From the sequence record PZ452582.1: a stretch of 64,000 nt of DNA; one strand, written 5' to 3'. The stretch is from a phage. Positions 2,827 through 9,187 of this stretch are shown one piece after another (the stretch's first letter is position 1; each line of letters opens with the position of its first letter). Below the pieces are notes generated by a model that worked only from the letters and a program-made list of their open reading frames with translations, was not told the origin of the DNA and ran no database searches. A program made the position numbers and the translations under genes.

Positions 2827-2965
2827 GATATTTCTTGGATATGTGATACTTTTTCTAGCGTTTTATCTGTTCACCAGAGCATGTTGGATTGGGTTCTTTA
2901 GCACTCCGGACGGATTTATTTCAATAATTTTATTTTGCATTTCAATGACGGTTCTTGATATATGA
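2825..2965 (+). CDS. small hydrophobic protein (not in ORF track)
   Basis: 46-aa ORF MIFLGYVILFLAFYLF...; stop overlaps gp47 ATG (ATATGA). Confidence 0.3.
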   Translation: MIFLGYVILFLAFYLFTRACWIGFFSTPDGFISIILFCISMTVLDI

Positions 2966-3981
2966 AAATTTTAAATTTAGGTGATTGGCATTTAGGTGTT
3001 AAAGCCGATGATGAGTGGGTTCAATCCATTCAGTTGGATGGAATTAAACAAGCAATAGAATATTCTAAGAAAAATGGAATTACTACATGGATTCAATACG
3101 GCGATATTTTTGATGTGCGAAAAGCAATCACACATAAAACTATGGAGTTCGCTCGTGAAATAGTTCAAATGCTTGATGATGCTGGTATTACCCTACATAC
3201 TGTTGTAGGAAACCATGATATGCACTTTAAAAATACTTTAACTCCAAATGCTTCTACTGAGCTTTTGGCTAAATATCCTAATGTTAAAGTATATGATAAG
3301 CCTACTACAGTAGATTTTGACGGATGTTTGATTGATTTAATTCCTTGGATGTGTGAAGAAAATACTGGTGAAATTCTTGAACATATTAAAACTTCATCCG
3401 CTTCTTTTTGTGTTGGTCACTGGGAACTGAATGGGTTTTATTTTTATAAAGGAATGAAATCTCACGGTCTTGAACCTGATTTCCTTAAGACTTATAAAGA
3501 GGTGTGGTCTGGTCACTTCCATACTATCTCTGAGGCTGCTAACGTCAGATATATTGGGACACCATGGACACTAACTGCAGGTGACGAGAATGACCCTCGT
3601 GGGTTCTGGATGTTTGATACAGAAACAGAACGAATGGAATTTATTCCAAACAATACTACCTGGCATCGTAGAATTCATTATCCATTTAAAGGAAAAATTG
3701 ACTATAAAGATTTTACAAATCTATCAGTACGTGTTATAGTAACTGAAGTAGACAAAAATCTAACGAAGTTCGAATCTGAACTAGAAAAAGTTGTGCATTC
3801 ATTACGAGTTGTGTCAAAAATTGATAACTCTGTCGAGTCAGATGACAGTGAAGAAGTTGAAGTTCAATCTCTTCAGACGTTAATGGAAGAATACATTAAT
3901 GCAATTCCAGACATCACTGATTCTGACCGTGAAGCACTTATTCAATATGCGAATCAGCTATATGTAGAGGCAACACAATGA
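2962..3981 (+). CDS. 47: gp47 recombination endonuclease subunit (Mre11-like)
   Basis: 339 aa, MKILNLGDWHLG phosphoesterase N-terminus, GNHDMH motif; T4 gp47 length. Confidence 0.93.
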   Translation: MKILNLGDWHLGVKADDEWVQSIQLDGIKQAIEYSKKNGITTWIQYGDIFDVRKAITHKTMEFAREIVQMLDDAGITLHTVVGNHDMHFKNTLTPNASTELLAKYPNVKVYDKPTTVDFDGCLIDLIPWMCEENTGEILEHIKTSSASFCVGHWELNGFYFYKGMKSHGLEPDFLKTYKEVWSGHFHTISEAANVRYIGTPWTLTAGDENDPRGFWMFDTETERMEFIPNNTTWHRRIHYPFKGKIDYKDFTNLSVRVIVTEVDKNLTKFESELEKVVHSLRVVSKIDNSVESDDSEEVEVQSLQTLMEEYINAIPDITDSDREALIQYANQLYVEATQ

Positions 3982-4241
3982 CTTTTGATGAATTTAAAAA
4001 TGTTATGATGAGTCAGCATTTTGAATGCGAAGTAAAAGATGATATTGGTCATAAAGAAATTATTGAATATTGGTTTGAACCGCTAGAGGTTGAACATAAT
4101 TGTATTAAAAAGGTTACGGTCTGCACTGACTGGGCTGTATCCTTTAACTTCAACATTTTAGATAATGACACACCTAAATCATTGCGAGATATGGCCGTAT
4201 CTTGTATTAAGGATGCATACTGTGAAGTTTTCGACATTTGA
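3978..4241 (+). CDS. hypothetical protein
   Basis: 87-aa ORF, start overlaps gp47 stop. Confidence 0.45.
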   Translation: MTFDEFKNVMMSQHFECEVKDDIGHKEIIEYWFEPLEVEHNCIKKVTVCTDWAVSFNFNILDNDTPKSLRDMAVSCIKDAYCEVFDI

Positions 4242-4428
4242 CATTAATGATGAATTCATAGCAAACATTGATTATACCGAAGAAGATTCTAGATATGTTG
4301 GAATAATTTATATTACATCAAAAACAGCACAAGGCGTTGTTTGCATGGCTGAATTTGATGAATACTTTTTAGATTATGATGATATGATAGAATGGTCTAA
4401 AAGATACATTAAAAGGAATCTTTTGTGA
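4213..4428 (+). CDS. hypothetical protein; N-terminus MHTVKFSTFDINDEF
   Basis: ATG at 4213 within track ORF 4165-4428; shares a 19-bp repeat with the start of the next gene. Confidence 0.35.
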   Translation: MHTVKFSTFDINDEFIANIDYTEEDSRYVGIIYITSKTAQGVVCMAEFDEYFLDYDDMIEWSKRYIKRNLL

Positions 4429-5279
4429 AGAATTTTAAACTTGACATTAATGATGAATTTTTAATAAAGGAATTAGTTGAAAAATTAGCGTTGAGTGAAG
4501 AAGACGCCAAGTCTTACATTAATTTTATTTCTATGAATTCAACTGTTAAAACTCCAGGTAAAACGGAAGCACATCACGTGCTTCCTAAATCAATATTTCC
4601 TGAATATTTAAAATCTACATGGAATTTAGTTAATTTAAGTCATTTTAATCATTTTAAAGCACATTTCTTATTAGCAAAAGGTAAAAATGGAAAAATGCTA
4701 AATGCTTTAAATAGAATGATGTCAGGAAAAACATATAAAAATTTATCTTTAGCCGAAGTTGATTTAATAGCTGCTGAATATAGTTTTATAAAACAAGATG
4801 TAAGTGACACAATATCAAAAAGGCTTCAACAATATTATTCAAATCCGCAAAATAGAAATGCTGCTAGAGAAAGGGCATTAAAATATTTTTCAGTAGCAAA
4901 AAATAGGAAAGATAACAAAGAAAGATTAAATAATTTTAAAACAAAACAAAAAATTTCAATGGCTTCAAGGGAATGGTTTAATAACGAAGAAAATAAAATT
5001 AAACACCAAAAGGCTGTTCGTGCTGCTTTATCAAAACCTGAATATAAAATAGCTATATCAAATTCAGTAGCTGCTAGTTGGAAAAATCCGGAGATTAGAA
5101 AAGCTCATATAGCATCTCGACGAAAAGGCTATCATTGGGATAATAAAGATAAATTGTATGAATTGTGGATATCATATAATCGTCCTAAACATGTGATGTT
5201 TAGGAAAATGTTAGTTAAGAATGGATATCCAATAGAGGCTTCATTACAGGCTTTAGTTAAAGAATTTTCTTCATTGTGA
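4425..5279 (+). CDS. HNH-family homing endonuclease-like protein
   Basis: 284 aa; EAHHVLPKS...N...HFNHFKAH His-Me finger pattern; basic C-terminal tail; GTG start at 4425 or ATG near 4530. Confidence 0.65.
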   Translation: MKNFKLDINDEFLIKELVEKLALSEEDAKSYINFISMNSTVKTPGKTEAHHVLPKSIFPEYLKSTWNLVNLSHFNHFKAHFLLAKGKNGKMLNALNRMMSGKTYKNLSLAEVDLIAAEYSFIKQDVSDTISKRLQQYYSNPQNRNAARERALKYFSVAKNRKDNKERLNNFKTKQKISMASREWFNNEENKIKHQKAVRAALSKPEYKIAISNSVAASWKNPEIRKAHIASRRKGYHWDNKDKLYELWISYNRPKHVMFRKMLVKNGYPIEASLQALVKEFSSL

Positions 5280-5294
5280 ACAATTGGATACAAA

Positions 5295-6977
5295 ATGAAA
5301 TCATTTAAACTTAATAGAGTAAAATATAAAAATATAATGTCAGTTGGTCAAAATGGAGTTGACATTCAATTAGATAAGGTTCAAAAAACTCTTATTACTG
5401 GACGAAATGGCGGTGGTAAGTCTACTATGTTAGAAGCCATCACATTTGGGCTTTTTGGCAAGCCATTTCGTGATGTAAAGAAAGGCCAATTAATAAACAG
5501 CACAAATAAGAAAGAACTTTTAGTTGAACTGTGGATGGAATATGATGAGAAAAAGTACTATATCAAAAGAGGACAAAAACCAAACGTTTTCGAAATCACC
5601 GTTAACGGTACACGTCTTAATGAATCTGCCAGCAGTAAAGATTTCCAAGCAGAATTTGAACAGCTTATCGGAATGTCATATGCCAGTTTCAAGCAGATTG
5701 TTGTCCTTGGTACAGCAGGGTATACCCCTTTCATGGGTTTGTCGACCCCTGCACGAAGAAAGCTTGTGGAAGACCTGCTTGAGGTAGGAACATTAGCTGA
5801 AATGGATAAGCTTAATAAAGCACTAATACGTGAATTAAATTCACAAAACCAAGTGCTTGATGTTAAAAAAGATAGTATTATCCAACAAATTAAAATATAT
5901 AATGATAATGTTGAACGCCAGAAAAAATTGTCTGGTGACAACCTTACTCGTCTTCAAAATATGTATGATGATTTGGCAAAAGAAGCTAGAACGCTAAAAT
6001 CAGAAATAGAAGAAGTTAATGAAAGATTAGTTAATATTGTTTTAGATGAAGACCCGACTGATGCATTTAATAAAATCGGTCAAGAAGCAGTTTTAATTAA
6101 ATCAAAAATTGACTCGTATAATAAAGTCATTAATATGTATCACGAAGGCGGATTATGCCCAACCTGCTTGTCACAATTAAGTTCAGGTGATAAAGTTGTT
6201 TCTAAAATTAAAGATAAAGTTTCTGAATGTACGCATTCGTTTGAACAGCTTTCAACACATCGTGATAATTTAAAAGTTCTTGTTGATGAATACCGAGATA
6301 ATATTAAAACCCAACAGTCGTTGGCAAATGATATTCGCAATAAAAAGCAATCTCTAATCACGACGGTAGATAAAGCTAAAAAAGTTAAAGCAGCTATAGA
6401 AAAAGCATCTTCTGAGTTTATTGACCATGCTGATGAAATAGCACTGCTTCAAGAAGAACTTGATAAAATTGTTAAGACAAAAACTAATTTAGTAATGGAA
6501 AAATACCACCGAGGAATTTTGACTGATATGCTCAAAGATTCTGGTATTAAAGGTGCTATTATTAAAAAGTACATTCCATTATTTAATAAGCAGATTAACC
6601 ATTATCTTAAAATAATGGAAGCGGATTATGTGTTTACATTAGATGAAGAATTTAATGAGACAATTAAATCCCGTGGTCGTGAAGATTTTAGTTATGCTTC
6701 ATTCAGTCAAGGTGAAAAAGCACGAATTGATATTGCTCTTTTATTTACTTGGCGTGATATTGCTGAAAAAGTTTCAGGTGTTAAAATAAACACACTAATT
6801 CTTGATGAAGTTTTTGATTCAGCGACCGATGTTGAAGGTGTAAAAGCTATTTCAACTATTTTAGATAGTTTAAAAAATACTAATGTTTTTGTTATTTCGC
6901 ATAGAGACCATGACCCACAAGCATATGGTCAGCACCTTCAAATGAAGAAAGTTGGTCGATTTACTGTAATGGTTTAA
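5295..6977 (+). CDS. 46: gp46 recombination endonuclease subunit (Rad50/SbcC-like ATPase)
   Basis: 560 aa; Walker A GRNGGGKST; central coiled coil; ILDEVFDS Walker B. Confidence 0.93.
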   Translation: MKSFKLNRVKYKNIMSVGQNGVDIQLDKVQKTLITGRNGGGKSTMLEAITFGLFGKPFRDVKKGQLINSTNKKELLVELWMEYDEKKYYIKRGQKPNVFEITVNGTRLNESASSKDFQAEFEQLIGMSYASFKQIVVLGTAGYTPFMGLSTPARRKLVEDLLEVGTLAEMDKLNKALIRELNSQNQVLDVKKDSIIQQIKIYNDNVERQKKLSGDNLTRLQNMYDDLAKEARTLKSEIEEVNERLVNIVLDEDPTDAFNKIGQEAVLIKSKIDSYNKVINMYHEGGLCPTCLSQLSSGDKVVSKIKDKVSECTHSFEQLSTHRDNLKVLVDEYRDNIKTQQSLANDIRNKKQSLITTVDKAKKVKAAIEKASSEFIDHADEIALLQEELDKIVKTKTNLVMEKYHRGILTDMLKDSGIKGAIIKKYIPLFNKQINHYLKIMEADYVFTLDEEFNETIKSRGREDFSYASFSQGEKARIDIALLFTWRDIAEKVSGVKINTLILDEVFDSATDVEGVKAISTILDSLKNTNVFVISHRDHDPQAYGQHLQMKKVGRFTVMV

Positions 6978-6989
6978 TTTATAAGAGAT

Positions 6990-7015
6990 TATGCTTTAAT
7001 TTATTAGAGTATAAT
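6990..7015 (+). promoter_or_regulatory. MotA-dependent middle promoter candidate
   Basis: TGCTTTA 6992-6998, 11-nt spacer, TATAAT 7010-7015. Confidence 0.5.
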
Positions 7016-7032
7016 CTCTGTGGAGGAAAAAC

Positions 7033-7221
7033 ATGGAATATTCAACTGGACAACATCTATTAACTATTCCTGAAATAAAACGATATATTCTGAGAAATAA
7101 TTTTTCTAATGAAGAGCATATAGTTACTGAATCTATGCTTAGGAATGCATTTAAAGCAGAATATACAAAAATAATGTCCAATAGAAATGAAGCTTGGACT
7201 GTTACTGATTATTATGACTAA
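7033..7221 (+). CDS. hypothetical protein
   Basis: 62-aa ORF between gene 46 and rpbA. Confidence 0.45.
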   Translation: MEYSTGQHLLTIPEIKRYILRNNFSNEEHIVTESMLRNAFKAEYTKIMSNRNEAWTVTDYYD

Positions 7222-7230
7222 AGGTGTATT

Positions 7231-7620
7231 ATGACTAAAATTACTGTGAATTATACTGTTGATGTAAAAGATATTCAGCCAAAACACGTGCGTTCTGAAT
7301 CAAATCCACAAAACCAAAATAAAATTCGTCGAGCATGGGTTTTGTCTCTTTCTGATAACGCAATGGAAGTTATTCAGAACAAAATTAAATCTGCACCTGC
7401 TCGTCATGCGTATTATGAAGCTATCGATCGTGAAGTAAGTAATAAATGGATTGAACTAATGCGCAAACATACTACAGAATCCCTAAATGCCGGTGCTAAA
7501 TTTATTATGACTTCATGTGGTGAACGCCTTGAAGATGAATATTGCGGTAATGCAGATGAACGTCTAATTGTTGCTGCTCAAATTGTTGCCGAAACAATTG
7601 TGGCCGAGTTTAATAAATGA
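7231..7620 (+). CDS. rpbA: RNA polymerase-binding protein RpbA (putative)
   Basis: 129 aa, immediately upstream of the gene 45 region as in T4; assigned by position and length. Confidence 0.7.
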
Positions 7621-8504
7621 ATTTAGTATATCTTATTAGCTTTCCAGAGCGGGAAGCTAAAAATATTTTTCCGTGTTATTATATAGGTTCAAAAATTAAC
7701 GCAATTTTCGATGGAACAAATATAATTGATTCAGCTGGAAAGATTTATACTGGAAGCGTGTCATCGAGTTATAGCGATGAATATTTTGAACTTATTAAAA
7801 CCACTAAATATACCGTCAAAATTTTAGCTGAAACTATATTAGATCCAAGAAAATTGGAGAGATTTTTTCAATTAAAAGTTAAAGCAAAAAGTAATATAAA
7901 ATATTTTAATAAAGCATACGCAGATGAAAATACTTTAATTGGTGCTAAAGGATATGGAACATATAAAAATGTTTTAACTGGAAAAATTGTAAAGCTTTCG
8001 CAATCTGAAATTACGCCTGAGTATGTCGGTATTCGTAAAGGTTACAAACATAGTTCTGAAGTAAAATACAAAATATCTAATTCAATGAAGAATCACTGGA
8101 CCGATGAGAAAAAGCTTAAACTCTCAAATAAGATGAAATTGAAATATCTTGATTGTAGTTATGCTAAAAAGTTTAGTGATATAATGAATTCAGAAAGTGT
8201 AAGATCAAAAATTTCTAAATCTCAAAAAGAATTATGGAATAATGCTGAAAGAAGACAGAGAGCTTCAATTCAAGCAACTGTTAGAAATAATTTACCGGAA
8301 TTCAAATCAAAATTTAGAAAATCTAAAGCTAGAGGAACTTGGATTGAACATGAAGATGAATTAAAATCTTTATGGCATGCTTACGGAAAACCAAGTTATA
8401 ATAAATTTCGTAAAATTGCAGTAGCTAATGGGTTTAACGACGAATCTTATCAGGGTGCTGTACGGTCCTGGTCTAACTATTATGTAAATAGGAAATTGAA
8501 ATGA
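7617..8504 (+). CDS. GIY-YIG-family homing endonuclease-like protein (Seg-like)
   Basis: 295 aa; N-terminal VYLIS...YYIGSK motif; basic repeat-containing C-terminal tail. Confidence 0.6.
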
Positions 8505-9187
8505 AATTATCTAAAGACACACTGAATATTTTGAAAAATTTCGCTACTATTAACTCCGGTATTATGCTTAAATCCGGTCAATTTATTATGACTCGTGCAG
8601 TTAATGGTACAACTTATGCGGAAGCAAATATTTCTGACGTTATTGATTTTGATGTAGCAATTTACGATTTGAACGGTTTTCTCGGTATTCTGTCTCTAGT
8701 TAATGATGATGCAGAAATTTCCCAGTCAGAAGATGGAAATATTAAAATTGCTGATGCCCGCTCAACAATTTTTTGGCCAGCAGCCGATCCGAGTACAGTA
8801 GTTGCTCCTAATAAACCAATTCCATTCCCGGTAGCATCTGTTGTTACTGAAATTAAAGCTGAAGACCTTCAACAACTGTTGCGTGTATCTCGTGGTCTGC
8901 AAATTGATACAATTGCTATCACGGTAAAAGAAGGTAAAATCGTAATTAATGGTTTTAATAAAGTAGAAGATTCTGCTCTTACCCGTGTTAAATATTCTTT
9001 GACTCTTGGTGATTATGATGGTGAAAATACATTTAATTTCATTATCAATATGGCAAATATGAAAATGCAACCAGGAAATTATAAACTTCTGCTTTGGGCA
9101 AAAGGTAAACAAGGTGCTGCTAAATTTGAAGGTGAACACGCGAATTATGTAGTAGCTCTTGAAGCTGATTCTACCCACGATTTTTAA
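8501..9187 (+). CDS. 45: gp45 sliding clamp
   Basis: 228 aa [27 protein letters not shown]...; T4 gp45 length and sequence recall. Confidence 0.95.
   Translation: MKLSKDTLNILKNFATINSGIMLKSGQFIMTRAVNGTTYAEANISDVIDFDVAIYDLNGFLGILSLVNDDAEISQSEDGNIKIADARSTIFWPAADPSTVVAPNKPIPFPVASVVTEIKAEDLQQLLRVSRGLQIDTIAITVKEGKIVINGFNKVEDSALTRVKYSLTLGDYDGENTFNFIINMANMKMQPGNYKLLLWAKGKQGAAKFEGEHANYVVALEADSTHDF

Follow-up and report, generated by a model that had tools for sequence, protein, structure and literature searches.

Two genes in the phage sequence record PZ452582.1 are in all probability independent freestanding homing endonuclease genes that carry DNA-binding tails of a shared type and spread by homing as promoterless cassettes, a reading reached by comparing sequences and predicted structures. 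The DNA analysed, here called the window, is a stretch of 64,000 nucleotides that the listing of open reading frames (ORFs) and family scans identify as a Tequatrovirus (T4-like) genome; the two genes described below, their parts and their junctions lie on its plus strand. ORF1 is a MobD-like HNH gene (4425-5279, GTG start, 284 amino acids) recognised by PHROG and BLASTP comparisons, and ORF2 is a GIY-YIG gene (7617-8504, ATG start, 295 amino acids) recognised by PHROG matches. An earlier note on this DNA had proposed an HNH-type and a GIY-YIG-type ORF at these positions, and both are present with the motifs that it quoted. It is already well documented that endonuclease genes can be freestanding, that they are embedded in the transcription units of their hosts and that they take part in marker exclusion. 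What is new here is a pair of uncharacterised genes, the capture of a start codon at gene 46, and a terminal protein module that has no Pfam counterpart and is evenly split between two nuclease families.

The two proteins are linked through their C-terminal halves. Residues 70-282 of ORF1 and 93-286 of ORF2 are 26% identical (composition-adjusted BLASTP, E 9e-11), and each C-terminal half is basic, with 36 lysines and arginines against 15 aspartates and glutamates and a pI of ~10. In AlphaFold models (pLDDT 69), both tails form five to six helices of ~15 residues with Pro-Glu-type breaks, followed by a three-helix unit. The models are only moderate since word-indexed homolog searches returned 7 and 5 matches only, leaving shallow alignments for structure prediction. 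By the measure of the BLASTP alignment the tails of ORF1 and ORF2 are homologous, and the common basic C-terminal tails described in the earlier note are borne out.

Both tails end in a three-helix, helix-turn-helix (HTH)-like module. In ORF1 it spans residues 238-281 (5136-5267; HW..KDKLYELW....RPK...FRKMLVKNGYP......LVKEF), with helices predicted at 241-250, 256-265 and 272-283; in ORF2 it spans residues 244-285 (8346-8471) and contains the motif GKPS. A hidden Markov model (HMM) of the module recognises the two copies with E-values of 2e-19 and ~1e-19, respectively. The module is ~45 residues long, is conserved in a position-specific manner (W, L-W, P, F-R-K and G-Y/F-P) and has a consensus of roughly HW..YDELY.LW...GKP....FRKIAV.NGYPD..Y..MV..F. 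A tail profile searched against 1.84 billion cluster representatives gave 191 matches at E <= 0.001, and the module is present in 87 of the 161 proteins examined: 35 with HNH heads, 35 with GIY-YIG heads and 17 short fragments. Eighteen of the 87 carriers have it in tandem, in two or three copies. Judging from this even division among homologous sequences, the terminal module has been shuffled between HNH and GIY-YIG nucleases, much as the earlier note had supposed of the tails.

Pfam offers no match to the terminal module at E <= 10, including in proteins built of the module alone, and the Pfam models of NUMOD1, NUMOD3 and NUMOD4 do not match it, NUMOD2 having been outside this comparison. 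A brief mention in PMC3239194 gives 'NUMOD 2' as an HTH motif of Sitbon and Pietrokovski. Judged without NUMOD2, the terminal module could possibly, and we say so tentatively, be a distinct and uncatalogued DNA-binding module that is autonomous, often tandem and HTH-like, that HNH and GIY-YIG nucleases have repeatedly acquired from one another, and that helps to set target specificity. If so, it could find use in engineered nucleases, as has been done with I-TevI modules.

Preceding the terminal module is a basic helical region of degenerate 17-residue units resembling NUMOD3/IENR2, which predicted helices and a repeat HMM place at residues 125-237 of ORF1 (4797-5135) and 142-237 of ORF2 (8040-8327). 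The predicted helices fall at 109-137, 141-168, 171-186, 188-202, 205-220 and 222-232 in ORF1 and at 147-160, 163-178, 180-190, 193-208 and 210-224 in ORF2. The HMM of the 17-residue unit (consensus NPEVREKISEAMKELWA) finds a single strong unit in each protein, and the repeat-unit totals are 9.3 bits for ORF1 and 9.7 bits for ORF2, against shuffle maxima of 2.6 and 3.7 bits. Pfam NUMOD3 appears in ORF2 only, at residues 142-158 and below threshold (E 0.11, 12.9 bits vs 20.4); it is recognised in 22 of 150 relatives scanned with Pfam, where the 17-residue repeat is abundant. The helical region of both proteins may thus be a degenerate form of this repeat, with a likeness to NUMOD3 that is weak but above that of shuffled sequences. 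The NUMOD-like modules of the earlier note are recovered in part: its S.K..W.NPE.RK motif corresponds to the weakly NUMOD3-like helices, whereas the terminal module stands apart from the three NUMOD models compared with it. Long arrays of the 17-residue repeat are also found on proteins with Pfam hits to Vsr-like or DUF559 nucleases, the SET domain and the Mom family; relatives P0029, P0046, P0051, P0054, P0055 and others are such repeat-array proteins.

The heads of the two proteins belong to different nuclease families. ORF1 contains the string EAHHVLPKS...WNLVNL...NHFKAH and matches phrog_655 (E 7.8e-45) and phrog_12434, 'HNH endonuclease' (E 4.4e-15). Its residues 47-281 align with T4 MobD (BLASTP, E 1e-18), and its tblastn matches include annotated mobD and mobE genes. 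The HNH motif region covers residues 46-98 (4560-4718), as defined by an iterated HMM (E 3e-24) and an alignment with 16 relatives including T4 MobD. Conserved residues are H50, H51, P54, N67, H76 and H80, all of which except P54 occupy invariant columns (17 relatives including MobD). Strands predicted at 47-51 and 68-72 and a helix at 73-84 give the beta-beta-alpha arrangement of an HNH nuclease.

ORF2 contains the string VYLIS...YYIGSK and matches phrog_655 (E 4.3e-33) and, over residues 1-103, phrog_7504, 'homing endonuclease' (E 5e-18). These residues (7617-7925) make up the GIY-YIG domain, with Y5, Y22-I23-G24, Y44-x-G46-S47, E81 and N98 as its signature, and are 40% identical to T4 SegG (E 1e-16). 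When ORF2, its homologs and SegG are combined into one profile, hhalign pairs it with Seg-type GIY-YIG profiles at 91-96% probability (E 1e-6 to 3e-9), and the GIY, YIG, Y-x-G-S, E81 and N98 columns fall in register. The predicted head has the alpha/beta fold of the family, and the I-TevI catalytic domain is its best structural match. After its nuclease domain and before the helical tail, ORF2 has one beta-hairpin-like segment (residues 112-138, 7950-8030), which is repeated many times in relatives such as P0031 and P0037 and is absent in ORF1.

Among known systems, ORF1 is closest in plan to T4 MobD, which is also its closest named relative and is the product of a freestanding HNH gene of the 'mob' type that lies between nrdC.11 and mobD.1. 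Both combine an HNH motif, 17-residue basic helices and the terminal three-helix module, and the module HMM matches MobD with E 2e-18. ORF1 differs in being only 30% identical to MobD, in occupying another genomic locus, and in having ~45 extra N-terminal residues, the first 12 codons of which come from genes 46 and 46.1. ORF2 resembles segG, whose product is a GIY-YIG endonuclease encoded between genes 59 and 32 that promotes marker exclusion, in that the gene immediately following it is an essential replication gene, whose displaced promoter ORF2 seems to hold in its coding region. Unlike SegG, which has 210 amino acids and no terminal module, ORF2 has a MobD-type tail, and the C-terminal halves of the two are unrelated. 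The precedent for joining a GIY-YIG head to a MobD-like tail is T4 SegF, which is encoded between genes 56 and soc, has been drawn as a hybrid endonuclease (PMC2988022) and shares its C-terminus with MobD at E 2e-5 (BLASTP). In segF, as perhaps in ORF2, a terminator lies within the 5' part of the coding region. In contrast to ORF2, SegF has a GIY-YIG head of the classical Seg subtype (it matches that profile with E 7e-21) and a terminal region so diverged that the module HMM does not reach it; ORF2 and SegF match each other only at E 0.009. With a SegG-type head and a MobD-type tail, ORF2 is a second natural hybrid after SegF.

More broadly, it is established that strings of small DNA-binding modules are common to phage GIY-YIG and HNH endonucleases (PMC2988022; PMC1564403). 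Like I-TevI and I-HmuI, ORF1 and ORF2 each tether a small nuclease domain to DNA-binding modules that occur in both nuclease families (PMC2988022; PMC1564403). Unlike these intron-encoded enzymes, they are freestanding and have no zinc finger, and their Pfam scans show no NUMOD1 or NUMOD4 match and NUMOD3 only below threshold. The pair represents a natural module-swap experiment: within a single genome, two nuclease heads that are unrelated to each other bear the same DNA-binding tail. As a clean but ordinary case of module swapping in a well-known class of mobile genes, it leaves the present understanding of homing endonucleases unchanged.

The surroundings of the two genes also fit the homing reading. 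The gene order in the window is 55, a-gt, 47 (2962-3981), 46.2 (3978-4241), 46.1 (GTG start, 4222-4428), ORF1, 46 (5295-6977), 45.2, rpbA (7231-7620), ORF2, 45 (8501-9187), 44, 62, regA and 43. The earlier note had ORF1 between genes 47 and 46, which is correct as to the region; its precise position is between 46.1 and 46, because the 'small ORF at 4213' of that note is gene 46.1, a conserved neighbour so named in T4, T2 and EC121 (Pfam DUF5487, E 4.5e-49). The placing of ORF2 between rpbA and gene 45 holds as given. Each start codon overlaps the stop codon of the gene upstream, the GTG of ORF1 with that of 46.1 (GTGA) and the ATG of ORF2 with that of rpbA (ATGA), and the stop codon of ORF2 in turn overlaps the ATG of gene 45 (ATGA). 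ORF1 and ORF2 have GC contents of 28-29%. The essential genes on their flanks (47, 46, rpbA and 45) are higher, at 33-36%; 46.1 (29.0%) and 45.2 (27.5%), both small ORFs, are as GC-poor as the two endonuclease genes.

Relatives were sampled by a megablast search with positions 3900-8600, which returned ~658 phage records, mostly Tequatrovirus. Only EC121, vB_Eco-B1.1, GRNsp7 and N2 cover the entire stretch. ORF1 occurs in 71 of the records (11%) and ORF2 in 25 (4%), each always at one location. T4 has neither gene and ORF2 is missing from T2, HY03, PD112 and Lutter, so that the endonuclease-free alleles sought by the earlier note exist for both; each ORF is sporadically present at a fixed site, with free alleles in close relatives. 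ORF1 is intact in T6 and frameshifted in T2 by a 2-bp deletion (L002 2026-2878) and in RB51 and RB68 by a 1-bp deletion (RB51, L012 301-1154), while ORF2 is frameshifted in EC121 by a 1-bp insertion near codon 20 (L001 5218-6106). The frameshifts in T2, RB51/RB68 and EC121 are independent events. Between the window and EC121, identity reaches 99.2% in ORF1 and 99.9% in ORF2, against 94.5% in gene 47 and 95.1% in gene 46. Sporadic presence, near-identity over diverged backbones and repeated decay are the pattern expected of homing endonuclease genes. Both genes belong, as uncharacterised members, to the Mob and Seg families of T-even phages; one of them is intact in the classic phage T6 and decayed in T2.

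Most database records label the two genes 'hypothetical protein' or, generically, 'homing endonuclease', and literature searches found no name for either. Frameshifted copies are annotated in the records as split or truncated genes, and the RB51 record leaves its copy out altogether. Homologs are found at the same two loci in Mosigvirus, with 44% identity in PNJ-9 and 57-60% in AV109, FL18 and AV111. In PNJ-9 (L006 2444-3304), the 44%-identical ORF1 homolog lies between 46.2 and 46, with no 46.1, and its stop codon falls inside the first codons of gene 46 (GTGAAAACATTTAA); the metagenomic relative P0014 shares its ...NENI ending. In Escherichia phage N2, which also has ORF1 and ORF2, a third endonuclease gene, annotated as HNH, lies on the minus strand between 46 and 45.2 (L014 3277-3993), which gives the 4.5-kb stretch at least three separate endonuclease slots.

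The junctions of ORF1 indicate where it entered. In the endonuclease-free T4, gene 46 begins GTGAAGAATTTTAAACTT|AATAGAGTA (MKNFKL|NRV), with AAAAGGAATCTTTT just before, and 46.1 overlaps 46 by GTGA. The first 18 nucleotides of ORF1 (4425-4442), which comprise the GTG and codons 2-6 (MKNFKL), are identical to the gene 46 start in T4, as is the ribosome-binding region upstream, according to a three-way alignment of the window, T4 and T2. Beyond the stop codon of ORF1, a 15-nt spacer and ATGAAATCATTTAAACTT (MKSFKL) form a surrogate gene 46 start (5280-5312) that agrees with the original GTGAAGAATTTTAAACTT at 14 of 18 positions. Downstream of this surrogate start at 5295, gene 46, which encodes an SbcC-like recombination nuclease subunit by ORF listing and annotation and has had its 5' end invaded, continues as in T4, with 560 amino acids in both. 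Since the captured start is followed, after the ORF1 stop, by a degenerate second copy, the insert lies within the first codons of gene 46. As the aligned alleles are read here, ORF1 took the translation start of gene 46 and its own 3' end supplies the surrogate. The junction shows how an essential gene tolerates a mobile gene inserted in its first codons, and as the start signals were taken and replaced, precise loss of ORF1 should be difficult.

The earlier note had instead drawn attention to a 19-bp direct repeat, TTGACATTAATGATGAATT, which is real: the window holds two exact copies and no more (4238-4256 and 4441-4459), where 0.10 matches are expected by chance even with 3 mismatches allowed, and two or more copies were seen in 0 of 100 shuffles. 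The 19-mer is the core of the best direct repeat of the region, a 45-nt sequence with 78% identity (4221-4265 and 4424-4468) that begins one base ahead of two GTG starts lying 203 nt apart and is in register with them. Copy 1 lies inside gene 46.1, and the same 19-mer is present in the 46.1 of T4, where there is no endonuclease. The exact part of copy 2 falls on ORF1 codons 7-12 (DINDEF; 4443-4459), which are identical to codons 7-12 of 46.1, and homology of ORF1 to the rest of the HNH family does not set in until residue 12-14 or thereabouts. On the simplest reading of these alignments, the 5' end of ORF1 would be a mosaic of three parts, with codons 1-6 from gene 46, codons 7-12 from 46.1 and endonuclease sequence from about codon 12, which points to a history of at least two illegitimate or short-homology recombination events. 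The suggestion that the ORF at 4213 is a duplicated endonuclease fragment is rejected, since it is 46.1, intact and present in T4. What remains of the repeat as a duplication or scar is the copying of 46.1 into codons 7-12, and in the alignments the clearer insertion scar is the duplicated 5' end of gene 46 rather than the 19-bp repeat.

ORF2 entered differently, replacing the 55-bp rpbA-45 spacer of T4 and T2. The substitutions linked to it are confined to ~20 nt on either side of the insert. On the left is a variant 3' end of rpbA (7600-7620), which reads ...VAEFNK* instead of the ...AADFNR* of endonuclease-free phages; the window and EC121 differ from T4, T2, HY03, PD112 and Lutter in this stretch only. 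On the right, the first six codons of gene 45 (8501-8518) carry three silent changes (AAATTATCTAAAGAC vs AAACTGTCTAAAGAT). A dense patch of ~10 substitutions follows in codons 8-11 of gene 45 (8519-8536), whose 5' end is otherwise conserved, and divides phages into two allele classes, TTAL (T4, T2) and TLNI (window, HY03, PD112, Lutter). It was considered as an endonuclease-linked immunity change and rejected, as HY03, PD112 and Lutter have the TLNI allele and no endonuclease.

The spacer that was lost contains, in T4, TTGCTTTA...TATAAA, a MotA-type middle-promoter pattern. A pattern search found a similar site, ATGCTTAC-N12-TATAAT (8377-8403), in the 3' end of ORF2, ~100 nt upstream of gene 45. 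By its agreement with the consensus, this site may serve as a replacement for the displaced middle promoter of gene 45. At the other end of ORF2, over codons 7-18, a consensus scan and folding indicate a terminator-like hairpin with a 10-bp stem followed by AAAATATTTTT (7636-7670). A terminator function is plausible by analogy with mobE and segF (PMC2988022); the hairpin is not visible in the Mosigvirus ORF2 homolog. Published accounts describe segG as embedding promoters for downstream genes, mobE and segF as having terminators in their 5' coding regions, and translational coupling of such genes (PMC2988022), and the promoter-like and terminator-like sites and start/stop overlaps of ORF1 and ORF2 match these descriptions. 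Sequestration of the start sites by RNA hairpins was also considered and set aside, as folds around both starts are no better than those of shuffled sequences.

Taken together, these features suggest how the two genes could work. Each protein would consist of a nuclease head, MobD-type HNH or SegG-type GIY-YIG, and an extended basic DNA-binding tail, and the common tail would reflect a trading of DNA-binding modules across the two families. When two phages infect one cell, the enzyme would nick or cut the partner's endonuclease-free allele close to the site at which its own gene is inserted, most likely at the 46.1/46 junction and the rpbA-45 junction, and recombinational repair would then copy the gene and a short flanking stretch into the recipient. 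Both genes are promoterless cassettes: the HNH cassette uses the ribosome-binding site, GTG and first six codons of gene 46 and gives gene 46 a surrogate start, and the GIY-YIG cassette has displaced the rpbA-45 spacer with its putative middle promoter and brings a replacement promoter-like site in its 3' end. Marker exclusion by ORF1 and ORF2 is a reasonable inference.

Several results weigh against active homing endonucleases and have to be set against this picture. For ORF1, Pfam and NCBIfam yield no HNH hit at E <= 1, and for ORF2 no significant GIY-YIG hit. Alignment of ORF2, its homologs and SegG reveals no counterpart of the I-TevI catalytic arginine (R27), phmmer searches of all PDB sequences for a solved relative of either protein return only noise, and DNA cutting by T4 MobD has never been demonstrated (PMC2988022). 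The hairpin at 7636-7660 folds no more stably than shuffled sequences (z -0.8), and the occurrence of the TLNI allele in endonuclease-free phages leaves target-site immunity changes not clearly identified. Structural searches with the ORF1 model were uninformative, a Foldseek comparison with the PDB giving no match at E <= 0.001. The earlier note had offered a Pfam search as a check and would have given way to a lack of catalytic-domain homology. Taken literally, the Pfam outcome is of that kind, but the argument does not hold because the characterised T4 proteins SegG and MobD score likewise: SegG has no Pfam GIY-YIG match, and MobD is itself below threshold for PF01844 (E 0.0029, 18.2 bits vs a cutoff of 21.4). 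Homology to PHROG families, MobD and SegG supports both heads, and among the 150 relatives scanned, PF01844 (HNH) is matched by 11 and Pfam GIY-YIG by 18. The Seg-type GIY-YIG profiles are likewise without an obvious catalytic arginine column. The same negative results could be read to mean that ORF1 and ORF2 are inactive or domesticated relics, that is, nuclease-dead or non-cutting DNA-binding proteins that are passive or kept for the expression signals of genes 46 and 45, and that spread by ordinary recombination or by trans-homing through other endonucleases. In addition to the undemonstrated activity of MobD, the sub-threshold curated models and the arginine, such a reading could draw on the persistence of frameshifted copies in T2, RB51 and EC121 and on the difficulty of precise loss, which would have to restore both the start of gene 46 and the promoter of gene 45 and so makes it easier for inactive copies to be kept. 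For I-TevIII and mobE, homing of a defunct endonuclease gene in trans is on record (PMC2790892). Nevertheless, in the window neither reading frame is interrupted or shortened, distant relatives retain the nuclease signature residues, and the distribution among related records is sporadic. Moreover, ORF1 and ORF2 have diverged much less than the sequences on their flanks, a contrast suggestive of recent, active spread. We therefore regard relics as an unlikely account of the pair and active homing endonucleases as the preferred one.

Two further alternatives concern parts of the evidence rather than the whole. The exact 19-bp copy of 46.1 sequence within ORF1, far beyond chance and in register with two start codons, could be a functional protein-binding site, either a mimic of the homing site or an operator for self-repression. 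The cuts of freestanding endonucleases such as SegF and SegG often lie a few hundred bp away from where the gene is inserted, which would suit such a site. There is a precedent in I-TevI, which acts at its own promoter through an operator resembling its homing site (PMC2988022). However, the exact identity is not kept: EC121 has a mismatch in its 46.1 copy and T2 one in its endonuclease copy, which argues against a selected binding site and weakens the case for the 19-mer as a conserved functional site. With a mosaic 5' end as the simplest reading, the site is putative and its existence appears quite improbable. As for the tails, lysine-rich helical sequences might resemble each other through convergence or compositional bias, as both are strongly basic and helical, identity is only 26%, and the 17-residue units draw apparently spurious Pfam hits (for example 'GerD' in 35 of the 150 relatives). 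Yet the BLASTP value was obtained with composition adjustment, the scores of shuffled sequences fall well short, and in both proteins the terminal module is conserved position by position; it recurs as a discrete unit, at times in tandem, on the 87 carriers. Of the three alternatives, convergence is the hardest to credit, and shared descent of the tails is preferred.

Other promoter-like sequences and repeats were observed in the region. In the 3' part of ORF1, a middle-promoter-like site GCTGCTTTA-N12-TATAAA is found at 5024-5056, ~240 nt ahead of the position at which gene 46 now starts; in this site the base preceding TGCTT deviates from the MotA-box consensus. Just past the stop codon of gene 46, at 6984-7019, there is a 17-nt inverted repeat with 88% complementarity and a 2-nt gap, which overlaps a MotA-type promoter-like sequence, ATGCTTTA-N12-TATAAT (6991-7017), in front of 45.2. 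The same location is occupied by a near-tandem repeat of 19 nt (6969-6987 and 6991-7009).

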